A DNA stretch of 36,393 nucleotides from a virus (Duplodnaviria; Heunggongvirae; Uroviricota; Caudoviricetes). Below are positions 17,175 through 36,393 of the stretch, one piece after another. The position numbers and the translations under genes were made by a program. The first letter of the stretch is position 1. Each line of letters opens with the position of its first letter. Below the pieces are notes generated by a model. It was not told where the DNA came from. It saw only the letters and a program-made list of their open reading frames with translations, and searched no databases. The stretch is from the IMG/VR virus record IMGVR_UViG_2534682108_000013, positions 1 to 36,393 of that record; one strand, written 5' to 3'.

Positions 17175-18479
17175 CTAGGCGGCCTGTTTCAGTGGAGATT
17201 GTTCGAAAGGAATATCAGGGAAAACCGCATTATGGACTTCGCGAAGCAGTTTAGCTTTTTCGGCTGTACTGTTTTTACGCAAGTCTTCAAGCGGGGTGAG
17301 ATTCAGTTGAACTGTGTAGATATCCCCACCCTCAATCGGTGGAAGGTTTTCAAGGCGTCGCACATCATTACGCGACATCCATCCGTTTTGCAGTGCGGTG
17401 GTGTAGTACGCCGCACGCCCTGCGCTGTCGGCACGGAGCAGGCCTTCTACTGAGAACTCCGCAAATAAATCCTCATCTCCGTTAAGCAGACAGCGTGAAA
17501 TCTCCTGCTCAATATTGACCAGCATTGGGCGTAGTGTATTAGTCAGGAACAGGAGGTTCATCCCTTCAACACTCGATGCCCAACTGCTCTGCTTCGTCGT
17601 GTGTCCTACCATAAAGGGAGGCACCCGGAACCAGCGGCAGATTTCCTCGATGCTGAATGAGCGTGATTCCAGCATCTGCGCATCTTCAGGATTCAGGGTT
17701 ATGCCCTGATAGGACATATCCCCCTCCAGCACCATCACTTTTCCGGCATTTTTAGAGCCGACGAAGCGGTTAAGGTTTTCACGGTTTTTCTGGCGCTGCT
17801 CTTTGGTCAGAAGATTCTTTGACAGGAAAAATCCGGATGTCTGAATACCGTTTTCGAAAATTTTCGCTGCGGACTCTTCAACCGCCATCGCCGCACCAAA
17901 CACGTCACGCCCGGTACGCATCGGCATCATCCCGCAGACACCATCAAGGCCAAAGCCCCGGATGTGCATCATGTTTTTAACCGGAATGATGCGCGCTATC
18001 CCCTTCTCAGTGTAGGTATAACGCAGTTCGCCGCTGTCCAGCCGCTCAACCTTCATGCACTGAGGCAGCAAAGGCACCAGTGAAACCAGTTTGGTACCAA
18101 TCAACTTTTTTTCTACGTAGGCATTACCCCGAAGGCAGATACTGGCAACCACCATCAGCATAAAGCGCGACGGCGTCATTTCACTGTTGGGGCGGCGACA
18201 TAACACCTGATAAGCAGGGTGATTAAGCGCCAGCTTGCGGGAACCATCAGCCGCCCGTTCGTATACCTTCATCGGCAGGGTTGAAACGGATTCACTCAGC
18301 AGACGTACACAGGCCCAGACAGAAGCCAGTGCCAGCGCTTTTTCTGCTGTAACGACTTTTCCGCTGCTACTGGTGCCATACCACTCCTGCCAAAAGGCTG
18401 CGTCATTCAGCCCAATTGTTTCGCCAAGCCAGTTAACAATCGCGGTTTTGATGCGGCCCGGCCGTTTTTTTTCCTTCAT
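17175..18479 (-). CDS. Portal protein (HK97 family)
   Basis: 434 aa; immediately downstream of terminase large subunit. Confidence 0.85.
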   Translation of the reverse strand: MKEKKRPGRIKTAIVNWLGETIGLNDAAFWQEWYGTSSSGKVVTAEKALALASVWACVRLLSESVSTLPMKVYERAADGSRKLALNHPAYQVLCRRPNSEMTPSRFMLMVVASICLRGNAYVEKKLIGTKLVSLVPLLPQCMKVERLDSGELRYTYTEKGIARIIPVKNMMHIRGFGLDGVCGMMPMRTGRDVFGAAMAVEESAAKIFENGIQTSGFFLSKNLLTKEQRQKNRENLNRFVGSKNAGKVMVLEGDMSYQGITLNPEDAQMLESRSFSIEEICRWFRVPPFMVGHTTKQSSWASSVEGMNLLFLTNTLRPMLVNIEQEISRCLLNGDEDLFAEFSVEGLLRADSAGRAAYYTTALQNGWMSRNDVRRLENLPPIEGGDIYTVQLNLTPLEDLRKNSTAEKAKLLREVHNAVFPDIPFEQSPLKQAA

Positions 18480-30685: not shown

Positions 30686-30740
30686 TTTTAGATGTCGGAA
30701 GTTGAAACAGACTGAGCAATTTCTAAAAAACAACATTTAA

Positions 30741-30765
30741 CCCGGCCCCAGCGCCGGGTTTTTAT
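30741..30765 (+). terminator. Rho-independent terminator after cI
   Basis: CCCGGC-CCCAGC-GCCGGG hairpin followed by TTTTTAT. Confidence 0.6.
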
Positions 30766-31787: not shown

Positions 31788-32903
31788 GTGCCATTATCCA
31801 AGCGTTCAGTTGAAGGCAGTCAAATGGCAAATGCACAGTACGAGAAAGGGAAAATCATACTTGAGCACACTAAAACTCAAGTCAAGAAGGCTGGAGAGTG
31901 CATACGAAAAGGAAATGGTGATATCGAAAAATCAATCGAGATTATCCAGCAGTATAGAGCGGCCCATCTGTACCCTTTGATGATTATTAAAAATCTCGTG
32001 TGGAAACATGCGCAAAAAATAAACAAAAACGCTATCATTGCACGTAGATTAAAACGTCTTCCGACCATTATTGATAAGTTACGACGTAAAACACTTGATG
32101 GTAAAACGCCGAATTCTATTGCTGTAACCCGAATGAGCGATATTGGTGGTTGCCGTGTAATTGTCGAGGACAGACAAGAGTTACTTTTATTAGATTCTTC
32201 GTTAGACAAAAGTCGCACCACCCATAAATCTAAGGTCAAGGATTATATAAGAACTCCGAAACCTACCGGCTACCGTGGTATCCATAGAGTTTATAGTTGT
32301 TATGACAAGGATGAATCTCATCAGTGGAAAGGGTTTGATATAGAAGTACAGTTAAGAACTAAACTCCAACATTTATGGGCCACTACAGTTGAAGTGGTGG
32401 ATTTGTGCGAAGGCAGGGCCCTGAAAACTAACCCATTCGAATCAAACCCTTCATGGATTGAGTTTTTCCAGCTAATGAGTGAATTCATTGCTGATGAAGA
32501 AGGATTCATTTTCCTACCTCCTCATAATAAAAACATCATAAAATCAAGACTTTTAAGTCTTAATGATAAACTTAATGCCATCGAAAAGCTCAGGTCATTT
32601 AACCGGTTATTCTCTGATAAAGAGTTAGACCTTTCCAAGAATAAGGGCGGATATGTAATAATCGCATTAAAATCAAATAAAATATTTTACAAGACCTTTA
32701 CAACATCTCAAAAGCACTTAGCTGTAACTGCATATTCCATTGTTGAAAAAGACGATGATGCAAATGGTTTATTTGTTGAGATGGACGACCTGCGAAAATT
32801 ATCTTCTGCCTACCCTAACTATCTAATCGATACGAGATTTTTTATAGATAAGTTTGAGTTGTATACCAATTCAAGTTATTGGGCAAAACCCCGACAGATT
32901 TAA
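31788..32903 (+). CDS. RelA/SpoT-domain nucleotidyltransferase with C-terminal extension (candidate fused toxSAS-type defence protein)
   Basis: Motifs TRMSDIGGCRVIVEDRQELL, KPTGYRGIHRVY, DIEVQLRTKLQHLWA; AGGAGG-5 nt-GTG start (the ORF track uses TTG at 31761); AT-rich; own terminator. Confidence 0.75.
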   Translation: MPLSKRSVEGSQMANAQYEKGKIILEHTKTQVKKAGECIRKGNGDIEKSIEIIQQYRAAHLYPLMIIKNLVWKHAQKINKNAIIARRLKRLPTIIDKLRRKTLDGKTPNSIAVTRMSDIGGCRVIVEDRQELLLLDSSLDKSRTTHKSKVKDYIRTPKPTGYRGIHRVYSCYDKDESHQWKGFDIEVQLRTKLQHLWATTVEVVDLCEGRALKTNPFESNPSWIEFFQLMSEFIADEEGFIFLPPHNKNIIKSRLLSLNDKLNAIEKLRSFNRLFSDKELDLSKNKGGYVIIALKSNKIFYKTFTTSQKHLAVTAYSIVEKDDDANGLFVEMDDLRKLSSAYPNYLIDTRFFIDKFELYTNSSYWAKPRQI

Positions 32904-32916
32904 TCTTTGTATAACT

Positions 32917-32941
32917 GAGGTCGCAATTGCGGCCTTTTTTA
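32917..32941 (+). terminator. Rho-independent terminator after the RelA/SpoT-domain gene
   Basis: GGTCGCAA/TTGCGGCC stem followed by TTTTTTA. Confidence 0.6.
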
Positions 32942-33282: not shown

Positions 33283-33642
33283 ATGTCAGAAACAAAGAAC
33301 ACCACACCATTCAGCCAGCAACTGGCTTATATCAATAAAGGCACACTGGATGCTGAACTGACCGAAGCGCTGGCCGAAGTGATTAAAGCAGTCCGCGAAA
33401 CTGGCAAGAAAGGTGCGGTTACGCTGACTCTCAATTGCGCCATGCTGAATACCCGTGACGAAAACACCATGAAGGTCACGCCAAAAGTAACCCGAACCAT
33501 CCCTGAACTGGACCGCGCCGATACCATCATGTTTGCAACCGCCGATGGCGATCTACTGCGTGACGATCCTGCGCAGACACAGCTTGATTTAAAGGTTATC
33601 GAACCTGCACCACAAACAGCACCTATCAAGCTGGCCCAGTAA
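33283..33642 (+). CDS. YfdP-like hypothetical protein
   Basis: 119-aa ORF with GGAG RBS immediately upstream of the YfdQ-like gene; naming from memory of the K-12 CPS-53 gene order. Confidence 0.5.
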   Translation: MSETKNTTPFSQQLAYINKGTLDAELTEALAEVIKAVRETGKKGAVTLTLNCAMLNTRDENTMKVTPKVTRTIPELDRADTIMFATADGDLLRDDPAQTQLDLKVIEPAPQTAPIKLAQ

Positions 33643-33685: not shown

Positions 33686-34498
33686 ATGTCTCAAATTGAA
33701 GGCTCTGCCGTGCTCGACATTCGTGATCTGGTCTCTGCAACTCTGAAGACTGAGACGGACATTCCGTCAGTTGTTGTACCCGATGGCTTTGAAGTCAAAT
33801 CCCTCGAAAGTCTGCAACTGGCTCCGTCGCGCATTCGTCAGAGCGCCAACCTGATTTCTCCGGGTTCGCTGATCGCTTACATCCAGCGATTCCGTGATGA
33901 ACGTACTGTAGTTTTCGCGGATAAAACTAAAACGCGCATTGTCGCCGTGCTGGATTTCCACCAGAACGCAGACAATCCGAGCTGGGCTGCACATGAAGCT
34001 GTTTATGACTGCCCGTTCTCCGACGAATGGAAATCATGGACTGCCAACGATGGCAGCAAAATGGACCAGATCAACTTCGCTGAATTCTTGGAAAACAATA
34101 TTCAGAATGTTGCGCCGGTTAGTGATTCATACCATGGCCCGTCAGGTACCGAACTGCTCGAAATGGTCCTGGCATTCCAGGAAACTCGCAAATCTGAGTT
34201 TAAGTCTGTTAAACGCCTTTCTGATGGTACCTGCCAGTTCCAGTTCAGCGATGAAAAATCAGGTTCTGGTAATACCAAAATGCCGGAAAAAATCAGCCTG
34301 GCAATTTCTCCATTCCACAACGGCTCTCCTTACCAGGTCGATGCACGTATCCGCTACCGCCTGCGTGATGGTCAGTTGGTCCTCTGGTATGAGCTGATCG
34401 AACCGAAGAAAGTTGTTGAGCACGCATTCCAGGAGATCGTCACCGATATGGAAAGCCAGCTTGGCGAAGACCTGCCTATCTACGAAGGCTCTGTTTAA
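33686..34498 (+). CDS. YfdQ-like protein (DUF2303-type)
   Basis: 270 aa; size and neighbourhood as recalled for E. coli CPS-53 yfdQ. Confidence 0.55.
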   Translation: MSQIEGSAVLDIRDLVSATLKTETDIPSVVVPDGFEVKSLESLQLAPSRIRQSANLISPGSLIAYIQRFRDERTVVFADKTKTRIVAVLDFHQNADNPSWAAHEAVYDCPFSDEWKSWTANDGSKMDQINFAEFLENNIQNVAPVSDSYHGPSGTELLEMVLAFQETRKSEFKSVKRLSDGTCQFQFSDEKSGSGNTKMPEKISLAISPFHNGSPYQVDARIRYRLRDGQLVLWYELIEPKKVVEHAFQEIVTDMESQLGEDLPIYEGSV

Positions 34499-34575
34499 TC
34501 CCACCGTGTGTTGTTTTATGCGCCTGCCCTGCGGGCGCATAGCAAAGCACTCTCCCACTACATGAAGGAGTAACC

Positions 34576-35373
34576 ATGCCCAGTTTAGGCCAGCTCTATA
34601 ATGATAAAGACGCCGGGTTAACTACCCGCAAAACCTACAATGTTCCGCTGGATAAAATTTACGCCGAAGAAGGCTACAACGTTCGTGAACTCAATCGGGC
34701 GCATGTTGAAGAATTCCGCGATGCGTTTATTGCCGGTGAATATATCCCGCCGCTGGCCGTAGAAGTTACCGAGCGTGGTGTGAAGGTTATCGACGGCCAT
34801 CACCGCTATCATGGTGCGCTGGCTGCTATCGAAATGGGCCACGACATTGTGCGCCTTGAATGCAAAGATTTCGTCGGTAGTGAAGCCGACAAGATCGCCT
34901 TCATGGTAACCAGCTCGCAAGGATTAGCGCTTACTCCTCTTGAACGTGGCGCGGCATATCATCGCCTTCAGAATCAGGGCTGGAGTCCTTCAGAAATAGC
35001 GGCAAAAGTTAAACGTTCTGAGTCCGATATTCTGCAACACCTTCAACTTCACGAATGTACTCCATATATCAAAAAACTCGTTCGTGATGGTTCCATGAAT
35101 TATGCCATCGCCATCGGTATCTCCCGCGAGCATGGTGTGTATGCCGATCGCGAAGCTTCACGTCTGATGAAGAAAGCTGAAGCCGCAGGTAAGAAAAAAA
35201 TAACCAAGAGCATCGCCAATCCTCAGTTTAATGCCGGAAAAGCAAGAAAGTTTCTTGAGCTTATTTCTTCATGTGCTGAGGACTCTGGTGAAGTGCTGAC
35301 CATTGAAGTGCCACCAGCAATGCAGGCTGAAATTATCTCTATTCTTCGGGAATTTCGTCATGAAGCAGTCTGA
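34576..35373 (+). CDS. ParB-like nuclease domain protein
   Basis: VIDGHHRYHGALAA ParB/Srx-fold signature. Confidence 0.7.
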   Translation: MPSLGQLYNDKDAGLTTRKTYNVPLDKIYAEEGYNVRELNRAHVEEFRDAFIAGEYIPPLAVEVTERGVKVIDGHHRYHGALAAIEMGHDIVRLECKDFVGSEADKIAFMVTSSQGLALTPLERGAAYHRLQNQGWSPSEIAAKVKRSESDILQHLQLHECTPYIKKLVRDGSMNYAIAIGISREHGVYADREASRLMKKAEAAGKKKITKSIANPQFNAGKARKFLELISSCAEDSGEVLTIEVPPAMQAEIISILREFRHEAV

Positions 35374-35569
35374 TTTACCAAGATGCCCAACGTGCGGAAA
35401 TATGCCCGAATACTCGCTGAAACCCAATCATCTTGGCTGGGTTTGGGGTGGTATCAGATGCCCGTATGACCATTACAGCGTGAAGCCCAACGGACCGGCC
35501 AGTAACCGTGCAAAGGCAGAAGAAACTCTGGCTCCGCAGTGGATTGCGTTGGTAGAAAAAGCAAGATAA
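35360..35569 (+). CDS. Small zinc-ribbon protein (possibly Lar-family restriction alleviation)
   Basis: MKQSDLPRCPTCG... with a second RCPYDH Cys/His pair; overlaps the ParB-like stop; Lar assignment is weak. Confidence 0.35.
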   Translation: MKQSDLPRCPTCGNMPEYSLKPNHLGWVWGGIRCPYDHYSVKPNGPASNRAKAEETLAPQWIALVEKAR

Positions 35570-35577
35570 GAGGTTTT

Positions 35578-36393
35578 ATGATGAGCAAATCAAGCATGGA
35601 ATATTACTTCGAATTCCCCGCCTCTCGCGGGTTACAGGGGAATACGCTTATTCTTCTGATGAACGTTCCAGGGCGAACCTTATCCCGTGTACTGGCATCC
35701 GATAATTACGGACACACCCTCGATCGCTCTCAGCGCGAAATAAACAAGTCACGCGTCAAAAAGTTTTACGATTATCTGGTTACAGCAGCAGAAAATAAAG
35801 AGCCATTCATCATCCCACCACTGGTTGGAAACTGCGCTTCACATGTGGAATTCGAAGAATTCGGCAACACAAATGTCGGTGTTGTTAGGTTTCCTATGGA
35901 TGCCGAAATTAAACTTTTCGACGGTCAGCACCGCGCTGCGGGTATATCTCAGTTCTGCAGAGATAATGATGCAATCCTGCATGTACCGTTGATGATGACT
36001 CTGCTACTTCCACTGAAGACACGTCAGCAATTCTTCTCCGATATTAATAACAACGTCTCCAAGCCATCAGCCGCAATCAATATGGCTTATAACGGCAGGG
36101 ATAAAATTGCACAAGAAATGGTGTCATTCCTGTCTACTCACCCTGTGTTTTCGGAAATCACAGACTTCGAACACAACGTAGTTCCGGCCAAAAGTGATCT
36201 GTGGGTCAGCTTTAAGGCCATGAGCGATGCAACCTCAAAATTCTCCGGAAATGGGGATGACGCCATTGCAACAGGTGATATTTACGATATCTGGGAAGCA
36301 TGGCTCAAGTTTACCGCTATAGATGGCATCCGGCATGGTGTTACCCCATCCGAATACAAACGGGATTACATTCAGTTTGTAGTGGCACACTGA
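35578..36393 (+). CDS. DGQHR-domain protein (DndB-like, ParB/Srx superfamily)
   Basis: KLFDGQHRAAGI motif; AAGAGG RBS before ATGATG at 35578. Confidence 0.7.
   Translation: MMSKSSMEYYFEFPASRGLQGNTLILLMNVPGRTLSRVLASDNYGHTLDRSQREINKSRVKKFYDYLVTAAENKEPFIIPPLVGNCASHVEFEEFGNTNVGVVRFPMDAEIKLFDGQHRAAGISQFCRDNDAILHVPLMMTLLLPLKTRQQFFSDINNNVSKPSAAINMAYNGRDKIAQEMVSFLSTHPVFSEITDFEHNVVPAKSDLWVSFKAMSDATSKFSGNGDDAIATGDIYDIWEAWLKFTAIDGIRHGVTPSEYKRDYIQFVVAH

Follow-up and report, generated by a model that had tools for sequence, protein, structure and literature searches.

The 3' end of the DNA analysed here (a stretch of 36,393 nucleotides, referred to as the window) carries three closely packed plus-strand genes coding for a ParB-like protein, a small zinc-ribbon protein, and a protein with a DGQHR motif. 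They are probably three independent accessory genes, and not one system, in the distal part of the early-left operon in a lambdoid prophage that E. coli O157:H16 carries at argW/dsdC. The three genes are separable in related loci and do not form an obligate module, and the DGQHR gene of this prophage is inactivated by an insertion sequence (IS) of the IS3 family while its neighbors are intact. Across the window, identity to NZ_CP062876.1 is 100%; the matching region there belongs to an argW-integrated prophage of E. coli O157:H16. In the annotated prophage, the trio has a LexA-type repressor to one side and the integrase/tRNA-Arg to the other, a place in the lambdoid early-left region that bears out the early operon proposed in an earlier reading of the letters alone (the sequence-only reading). 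That reading had also looked for partner genes beyond the window edge. Past the edge, the annotation of NZ_CP062876.1 lists the IS and what is left of the DGQHR gene, along with a small ORF, a 3'-5' exonuclease, an IS66 element, and the integrase; no dnd, dpd, parA, or DNA-modification genes are present there in the annotated prophage. The features of the region, in window coordinates, are listed below.

33283-33642, plus strand: yfdP-like small protein (119 aa; phrog_204 at 2.8e-35), first gene of a conserved block
33686-34498, plus strand: YfdQ-family/DUF2303 protein (270 aa; Pfam DUF2303 at 5.7e-71; phrog_210)
34506-34550, plus strand: conserved RNA hairpin in the spacer between the YfdQ and ParB-like genes (fold energy -30.1 kcal/mol, z=-3.97)
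34576-35373, plus strand: orphan ParB/KorB/Noc-like protein (265 aa), assigned by HTH_ParB, phrog_1033, a PDB profile, and Foldseek
34792-34806, plus strand: DGHHR motif, read from the sequence, aligning to ParB box II (GERRYR in Spo0J 1vz0)
35360-35569, plus strand: zinc-ribbon protein (69 aa; CPxCG ... CPxxH ... A..L..W), annotated in RefSeq, with a family of 20 representatives
35581-36377, plus strand: 5' 266 of 358 codons of a DGQHR-domain gene (DndB Pfam family), an IS-truncated pseudogene
35920-35934, plus strand: DGQHR motif, read from the sequence and invariant in the family
36375-36377, no strand: left copy of the GTT target-site duplication, the second copy lying right after the right end of the IS (L001 19428-19430)
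36378-36393, plus strand: first 16 nt of the left inverted repeat of the IS3-family element, giving the apparent codons VVAH and a TGA stop

The three plus-strand ORFs were confirmed (34576-35373, 265 aa; 35360-35569, 69 aa; 35578/35581-36393), and the tight packing, the 14-nt overlap of the first two at 35360-35373, and both motifs are in the sequence as first described. The 8-nt gap given before the third gene holds only for the ORF, which does open at 35578; the likely start is the ATG at 35581 (MSK..., shared by all homologues and PGAP), so that the gap behind the zinc-ribbon gene is 11 nt. Searches found 587 relatives of the ParB-like protein, 20 of the zinc ribbon, and 221 of the DGQHR protein. 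Because all three are conserved proteins across many genomes, they are genes and not chance ORFs. The overlapping start and stop codons and the lack of spacers indicate that the trio is expressed within an operon. A promoter and terminator scan gave no trio-specific promoter, with site counts close to shuffle expectation.

An IS3-family element of 1249 bp begins at window position 36378 and leaves 92 of the 358 DGQHR codons on its far side; PGAP annotates the gene in NZ_CP062876.1 as a C-terminally truncated pseudogene. The insertion shows terminal inverted repeats (TGTAGTGGCAC.../TGTAGTGGTCA... in NZ_CP062876.1; TGTAGTGG... for the element), a 3-bp target duplication, and a transposase encoded in two ORFs with a programmed frameshift (PGAP, NZ_CP062876.1), all of which identify an IS3-family insertion. 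Removal of the IS in silico restored a 358-aa ORF with 96% identity to intact homologues. With the DGQHR gene out of action, a function that needs all three parts is excluded in this genome.

The ParB-like protein consists of a ParB/Srx N-terminal domain with non-canonical motifs, a ParB helix-turn-helix (HTH), and a small C-terminal domain. The family call of the sequence-only reading was upheld by a match to the Pfam family HTH_ParB (31.3 bits, cutoff 22.6), by the PHROG family phrog_1033, 'ParB-like partition protein' (8.5e-77), and by a search of the family profile against the PDB, which retrieved Spo0J (1vz0 at 2e-10). Further evidence of a ParB/Srx-type fold comes from an AF2 model (pLDDT 89.7), for which Foldseek returned ParB, KorB, Noc, and Spo0J at probability 1.0, with E values of 2e-9 to 1e-7 for ParB, KorB, and Noc. 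Pfam ParBc did not match the protein, and TIGR00180 scored 25.2 bits, under its cutoff of 58.45; the support for the ParB N-domain comes from the profile-versus-PDB search and the fold comparison. In the alignment to 1vz0, GHHRYH replaces GERRxR at box II and TSSQG replaces ENLQR at box III. The DGHHR motif is invariant across the family, as are both pocket variants. These replacements make CTP binding and hydrolysis by the protein doubtful. PGAP names the gene 'ParB/RepB/Spo0J family partition protein'.

What kind of ParB relative is this? Like KorB (RK2), BisD (ICEclc), HerB/YfjB (F leading region), and Noc, it combines an N-terminal ParB fold and a ParB HTH with no ParA partner, and its gene sits on a mobile element in an early-expressed region. 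Early-expressed orphan ParB-like regulators on mobile elements have precedents in HerB and BisD (PMC13370423), and prophages are enriched in orphan proteins of the ParB fold (PMC12704722). The model reaches TM-scores of up to 0.67 against KorB and Noc. However, the protein is much shorter than HerB and differs from all four in having GHHRYH and TSSQG at boxes II and III.

The 69-aa protein, a zinc ribbon of the C-C-C-H type, is usually found in the company of ParB-like genes. At default thresholds, it had no match in Pfam, NCBIfam, or PHROG. Its best Pfam family is Lar_restr_allev (PF14354), which it matches below threshold (12.3 bits vs 28.6; E=0.21) over profile positions 2-54 of 58. The same family was matched by 6 of 14 relatives (best E=5e-4), and hhalign with K-12 RalR/Lar gave E=0.002 at a probability of only 13%. 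Lar/RalR of the Rac prophage (PF14354) functions in restriction alleviation. The zinc ribbon is similar to it in size and early-left location, and the two have in common a CPxCG knuckle at the N-terminus, another metal knuckle, and the motif ...A..W at the C-terminus; the two-knuckle pattern and the C-terminal A..W are kept across the family. At the second knuckle, CPxxH or CxxCH takes the place of CxxC in Lar. The 69-aa zinc ribbon may be a distant relative of Lar. The parallel with lar drawn at the outset stands as a weak likeness, but all scores are under the gathering threshold.

The DGQHR protein is DndB-like, as had been proposed, with its motif in a ParB/Srx-type fold. It matches Pfam DndB (PF14072) at 2e-39 (136 bits for the truncated product, cutoff 29.1), the DGQHR family TIGR03187 at 176.6 bits (cutoff 58.85), and PADLOC DndB at 1e-33. 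PADLOC gave no match to the ParB-like and zinc-ribbon proteins. The C-terminal part is a helical domain, and no nuclease or other effector domain is present. DndB is a DNA-binding repressor with a DGQHR motif (PMC4507180), and a DndB-like protein binds ATP/GTP (PMC12704722). The likeness to DndB of the DndBCDE system (PF14072, TIGR03233) extends to the motif, the Pfam domain over ~260 residues, and the ParB/Srx-type fold. Unlike DndB, the protein is far under the NCBIfam equivalog cutoff (TIGR03233, 92.7 bits vs 328) and, in the loci surveyed, unlinked to dndCDE. It also belongs to a separate phage group, phrog_7901 (PHROG), with members in lambdoid early operons as well as in Uetakevirus phages; Vibrio phages of 82-84 kb carry distant homologues. 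No dnd genes, dndCDE included, were found in two annotated prophage loci or in the frequent neighbor families of 98 DGQHR loci, a survey that covered the more frequent families, 19 of which were run against Pfam. A DNA methyltransferase gene lies up to 3 genes downstream in ~12% of DGQHR loci and, in Salmonella phage SPN1S, overlaps the DGQHR gene by 4 nt. Such loci recall the phage fusions of a ParB domain to a DNA methyltransferase (PMC12704722) in that a ParB/Srx-fold module adjoins a methyltransferase. However, the two genes are separate, and this window has no adjacent methyltransferase. A literature search found no functional study of phage DGQHR proteins.

How tightly are the three genes linked? 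A DGQHR gene was found behind this ParB-like gene in 19 of 76 sampled loci (about 25%) and behind a second, BLAST-unrelated ParB-like family in 24 of 77, leaving 69-75% of sampled loci with a ParB-like gene and no DGQHR gene. In the other direction, a ParB-like gene is present up to 5 genes upstream in 39 of 91 distinct DGQHR architectures (43%, uncorrected for prophage relatedness). No ParB-like gene is nearby in 57% of the architectures, and family HMMs detected no other ParB-like ORFs in the ParB-free loci. The gene families immediately upstream of DGQHR number 35 in the 91 architectures, and three divergent ParB-like types are found directly upstream of it. Alleles of DGQHR that share at least 98% identity were found behind both ParB-like families and also in ParB-free contexts, so the DGQHR and ParB-like genes do not co-evolve. 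The sequence-only reading had suggested that the trio could be one module in anti-defence or DNA-modification sensing. In such a module, a pair of ParB/Srx-fold NTPases would act jointly with a Lar-like zinc ribbon, early in infection, against restriction or phosphorothioate-based immunity. Several observations point this way. DGQHR genes come immediately after ParB-like genes that belong to at least two unrelated families, and stop and start codons often overlap there. Zinc ribbons of this family are found with both ParB-like types, the best Pfam family of the ribbon is Lar_restr_allev, though sub-threshold, and the early-operon position is typical of anti-restriction genes. The 43% association and the three divergent ParB-like types directly upstream seem more than chance, and a functional link could lie behind them. 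Nevertheless, such a module is unlikely, because the genes separate in both directions, near-identical DGQHR alleles sit in unrelated contexts, PADLOC and anti-defence families match nothing except DndB, and the DGQHR gene is disrupted here with its neighbors intact.

Readings centered on one gene fare less well still. A defense or superinfection-exclusion gene benefiting the lysogen would suit the variable, cassette-like DGQHR gene of an accessory region, and a PDC-S33 defense candidate lies in the same prophage arm. But the gene has no promoter or terminator of its own, is translationally coupled to its neighbors inside an early operon, encodes a helical C-terminal part in place of any effector domain, and has its distant homologues in Vibrio phages, which makes this role quite improbable. 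The Pfam and PADLOC scores and the shared motif of a known DNA-binding repressor favor a true DndB, i.e., a repressor of the dndBCDE operon carried or targeted by the phage. The equivalog shortfall, the lack of dndCDE in the loci surveyed, and the separate phage group make it highly improbable; a true DndB, or a dnd/dpd cluster past the edge, was rejected on the equivalog score and the content of the annotated prophage. The likelihood is close to nil that the ParB-like gene belongs to a plasmid-style partition cassette, as its PGAP name and its ParB fold with HTH would have it. The prophage is integrated, with its integrase at tRNA-Arg; no ParA is annotated in it; and the ParA-interaction motif [LFI]G[KR]G[LFI] is absent from the ParB-like sequence. 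No recurrent parS-like palindrome of 14-16 bp is present in the window, with sites outside the window possible, and the sole palindrome conserved upstream of the ParB-like gene has the behavior of an RNA hairpin. The sequence-only reading had named a parA/parS cassette as one of the outcomes that would overturn it, and no such cassette was found. With TIGR00180 under its cutoff and boxes II and III non-canonical, the partition cassette was rejected.

Under the preferred reading of three independent accessory genes, fold and context suggest that the likely mechanism is one of independent NTP-gated ParB/Srx-fold DNA-binding proteins acting early. The ParB-like protein would bind DNA as a nucleotide-gated switch that is produced early after induction or infection; like KorB, BisD, and HerB, it would regulate transcription or DNA transactions and not partition DNA. 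The DGQHR gene moves as a single-gene cassette among many positions of lambdoid early operons. A ParB-like gene often, but not always, comes right before it, and its product may be an ATP/GTP-dependent DNA-binding protein serving the phage in early development. A bolder proposal, and a long shot, is that phage DGQHR proteins (phrog_7901) are unrecognized DndB-fold ATP/GTP switches that, early in infection, blunt DNA-modification-based host immunity alongside orphan ParB-like clamps, Lar-like ribbons, or methyltransferases. If so, their targets would be restriction-modification and Dnd/Ssp phosphorothioation. They might mimic DndB on host dnd promoters, or load onto phage DNA and shield it, and the repeated adjacency of DGQHR and ParB-like genes would reflect a real functional partnership.

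The locus itself is of little weight: RefSeq already annotates it with identical family names, one of its genes is defunct, and the three genes are probably not a system. DGQHR/DndB-like genes are a recurrent, mobile, uncharacterized cargo of lambdoid early operons, and they offer a cheap lead for anti-restriction or anti-phosphorothioate screens of phage early genes. Orphan ParB-fold proteins with conserved non-canonical pockets (GHHR/TSSQG) are candidates for newly recognized diversity among ParB-type NTP switches.

A conserved unit does exist upstream of the trio's last two genes. It consists of the yfdP-like, YfdQ (DUF2303), and ParB-like genes and is invariant in 80 sampled loci: the YfdQ/DUF2303 gene is always directly 5' of this ParB-like type, and the yfdP-like gene is present in all but one locus, which begins 45 bases before the ParB-like gene. 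Lambdoid early-left regions are known to carry ParB-like and yfdP/Q/R genes of unknown function (PMC12315714). The arrangement resembles CPS-53 of K-12 (yfdPQRST) in its argW/dsdC integration site, its operon position, and a yfdP-like gene preceding the DUF2303 gene. It differs in that the ParB-like gene occupies the place of YfdR and the DUF2303 protein has diverged from K-12 YfdQ beyond BLAST detection. BLAST of K-12 YfdP/Q/R/S/T against the window proteins gave only a weak YfdP match (27% over 92 aa, E=0.005). The hairpin in the YfdQ/ParB-like spacer was found in all sampled loci; a search of Rfam gave no match to it. In the alignment, 93.8% of cells are paired and 5 pairs show compensatory changes, and slid and shuffled controls score far lower. 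The invariant G.U pairs of the hairpin are compatible only with plus-strand RNA.

The end of the window carries three plus-strand ORFs, and reading the sequence confirmed the 14-nt overlap between the first two and the motifs DGHHR and DGQHR. Each ORF has many conserved relatives; the three are genes and not chance ORFs. They are co-oriented, closely packed and often translationally coupled inside the early-left operon, and a promoter scan found no obvious promoter of its own for any of them. The tight packing described in the sequence-only reading holds, but its 8-nt gap before the third ORF does not: in homologues and in the PGAP annotation this gene starts at 35581 (MSK), which leaves an 11-nt spacer behind the zinc-ribbon gene. 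The features are as follows.

34506-34550, plus strand: conserved RNA hairpin with a 19-bp stem, in the spacer between the YfdQ gene and the ParB-like gene
34576-35373, plus strand: ParB-like ORF, 265 aa, with DGHHR at 34792-34806
35360-35569, plus strand: zinc-ribbon ORF, 69 aa, overlapping the ParB-like ORF by 14 nt
35578 or 35581 to the window end, plus strand: DGQHR ORF, with DGQHR at 35920-35934

Between 33200 and 36393 the window matches the chromosome of E. coli O157:H16 strain Res13-Lact-PEA12-26 at 100% identity, and the annotation there shows a lambdoid prophage inserted at tRNA-Arg(argW)/dsdC. Prophage CPS-53 occupies the same site in K-12. Along the trio strand, the order is a LexA-type repressor, a RelA/SpoT-domain gene, small ORFs, a YfdQ-family gene, the ParB-like gene, the 69-aa ORF, a DGQHR pseudogene, an IS3-family element, the 3' remainder of DGQHR (which the annotation calls a 'hypothetical protein'), a 57-aa ORF, a 3'-5' exonuclease, an IS66 element, three hypothetical genes, and an integrase. 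The elements from the IS onward, with no dnd gene among them, stand where the sequence-only reading would place any partner genes, past the window edge. The locus is already in RefSeq under the same family names, pseudogene flag included, and the families have entries in PHROG, NCBIfam, and Pfam; function has been demonstrated in phages for none of them. Elsewhere in the prophage, away from the trio, an MT-A70-family DNA methyltransferase gene (24575-25219, minus strand, as annotated in the identical RefSeq record) adjoins the NinG and antiterminator Q genes.

The IS3-family element (1249 bp; 18179-19427 of the annotated O157:H16 region) starts at window position 36378; it is bounded by terminal repeats (TGTAGTGGCAC...) and by a 3-bp duplication of the target, GTT. 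The final 16 bases of the window (36378-36393), including the TGA that closes the DGQHR ORF, are IS sequence. In silico excision of the element and one GTT copy gave a 358-aa ORF (359 aa from an upstream ATG) that is 96% identical to intact homologues over its full length. The truncated product, on record in several O157:H16 assemblies (P0032), keeps 266 native residues; the 92 that it loses make up a helical domain, modelled with confidence and invariant at many positions. The DGQHR gene is inactive in this genome. The arrangement first described is real but was partly misread: an insertion sequence cuts its third gene short and spans the window edge. A second element, the IS66-family ISCro1 (20462-23077 of the same region), shares 80 nt with the 3' end of the exonuclease gene as annotated. 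The presence of two insertion sequences in the early-left arm suggests that this prophage arm is decaying.

Do the three genes form a coherent module, as had been proposed? The 98 DGQHR loci sampled (18 genomic and 80 viral, from 183 viral matches in total) showed 91 distinct architectures, with 35 gene families directly upstream. Among the five genes upstream, 39 architectures (43%) had a ParB-like gene, 15 the zinc ribbon and 21 a DUF2303 gene. These ParB-like genes belong to two families that BLAST does not connect: the window type, including a 32%-identical variant directly upstream of DGQHR at one locus, and a 262-aa 'VVDGRQRVRH' type, also with HTH_ParB. HMMs of both families found no more ParB-like ORFs in the remaining DGQHR loci. 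From the other side, the yfdP-like/YfdQ/ParB-like block was invariant among 80 sampled loci (of 414) of the window type, but DGQHR followed the ParB-like gene in only 19 of the 76 with enough flank. The zinc ribbon was detectable in 55 of these 76, where DGQHR was mostly absent. Behind the second ParB-like family DGQHR occurred in 24 of 77 loci, frequently with a 4-nt overlap at the ParB-like stop codon. Alleles of DGQHR that share at least 98% identity turned up behind both families and in ParB-free contexts. The trio genes are separable both ways and show no allele-specific pairing, and these counts and shared alleles argue against the module. The adjacency of DGQHR and ParB-like genes looks commoner than chance on counts that ignore prophage kinship. 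It would fit a favoured insertion point within a mosaic region, or a functional affinity of a loose kind.

The second orphan ParB-like family (L184-L263; motif DGRQR, HTH_ParB 7e-11) is about as frequent in IMG/VR as the window type (411 vs 414 matches). It can sit downstream of replication-type genes, a placement that the literature records for early-right ParB-like genes.

The assignment of the first gene as ParB-like is borne out by HTH_ParB (above threshold), PHROG 1033 ('ParB-like partition protein', 8.5e-77), a PDB profile and the fold, but not by Pfam ParBc (no match) or TIGR00180 (under cutoff). A profile of 22 family members matched Spo0J (1vz0, 2e-10), B. subtilis ParB, Myxococcus ParB, Noc, and KorB across the N-domain and HTH. 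The AF2 model (pLDDT 89.7) matched the same proteins with a probability of 1.0 and target-normalised TM-scores of up to 0.67 (KorB, Spo0J). In alignment with Spo0J, GHHRYH replaces the canonical box II GERRYR and TSSQG replaces box III ENLQR. Because both replacements are nevertheless invariant across the window-type family, the nucleotide pocket is under selection yet differs from the canonical CTPase pocket. A plasmid-style partition cassette was rejected: the protein lacks a ParA-interaction motif, no ParA is annotated in the prophage, and the window holds no recurring parS-like palindrome.

Profile searches agree on the DGQHR family (Pfam DndB, 2e-39; NCBIfam TIGR03187, 176.6 bits against a cutoff of 58.85), and the ORF also matches PHROG 7901 (5e-165), a family of unknown function. 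Neither sequence search nor Foldseek found PDB relatives, and no paper on phage DGQHR proteins was found. A true DndB was rejected: the equivalog model gave 92.7 bits against a cutoff of 328, and dnd genes are absent from the annotated prophages and from the commoner neighbour families at the 98 loci. A methyltransferase gene (Dam-like or MT-A70-like) lies within three genes downstream of DGQHR in ~12% of loci, roughly a dozen, a proximity reminiscent of the phage proteins in which a ParB domain is fused to a methyltransferase. Salmonella phage SPN1S (Uetakevirus; L266 5073-6658) has its DGQHR gene translationally coupled to a DNA methyltransferase gene, with a 4-nt overlap, and the integrase adjoins. 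Vibrio crassostreae phages of 82-84 kb and one Pseudoalteromonas phage encode distant homologues (31-35% identity); in Vibrio phage 264E42.1 (L267 4995-6461) the match lies inside a 488-aa protein, with DNA ligase, RdgC-like, and methylase genes near.

The zinc-ribbon ORF matched no family at default thresholds (Pfam, NCBIfam, PHROG). Its family is small (20 representatives) and conserves CPxCG, then CPxxH or CPxxCH, then a C-terminal A..L..W. Lar_restr_allev was the best Pfam family each time and never above threshold: E=0.21 across almost the whole profile for the window protein, and 4/14 and 6/14 matching relatives in two sets (best E=1e-4). In hhalign, every landmark aligned with K-12 RalR/Lar (E=0.002) at low probability. 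'Lar-like' is a lead from these comparisons, not family membership. One 189-aa relative (P0255) is fused to a C-terminal region with a match to the Ead/Ea22-like family (6e-5); Ea22 proteins, too, are a lambdoid early-left type.

What might these proteins do? Both larger ones have nucleotide-binding ParB/Srx-type folds, the ParB-like protein with a DNA-binding HTH as well. Lambdoid early-left operons are known to carry ParB-like genes and the yfdP/yfdQ/yfdR cluster, all of unknown function (PMC12315714), and orphan ParB-fold proteins are frequent on prophages (PMC12704722). HerB/YfjB, BisD, and KorB are orphan ParB-like proteins of mobile elements, early-expressed DNA clamps that reprogram transcription (PMC13370423). 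The ParB-like protein would bind DNA under nucleotide control, as a regulator or clamp, soon after induction or infection. DndB is a repressor that binds DNA (PMC4507180), and both ATP and GTP are bound by a DndB-like protein (PMC12704722). The DGQHR protein would serve the phage independently, as an accessory factor of DndB type whose DNA binding depends on an NTP. The zinc ribbon could act as a modulator of the Lar type. The anti-defence role first suggested for the trio is possible, if speculative.

The hairpin ahead of the ParB-like gene was found in 80/80 sampled loci. It has covariation support, with compensatory changes such as UAUGUGCC/GGCACAUA, and its invariant G.U pairs are compatible only with a plus-strand transcript. 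No T-run follows it and no Rfam family matched. Its role may lie in RNase III processing or mRNA stability, or in translational control of the ParB-like gene.

Further upstream, the RelA/SpoT-domain protein (31788-32903, plus strand, 371 aa) has matches to PDC-S33, a defence candidate in PADLOC (1e-92), and to phrog_4773. Its gene lies directly downstream of the LexA-type repressor, with terminator-like hairpins on either side (30739-30760 and 32917-32936), in a rex-like, moron-like position, and only some related prophages carry it.
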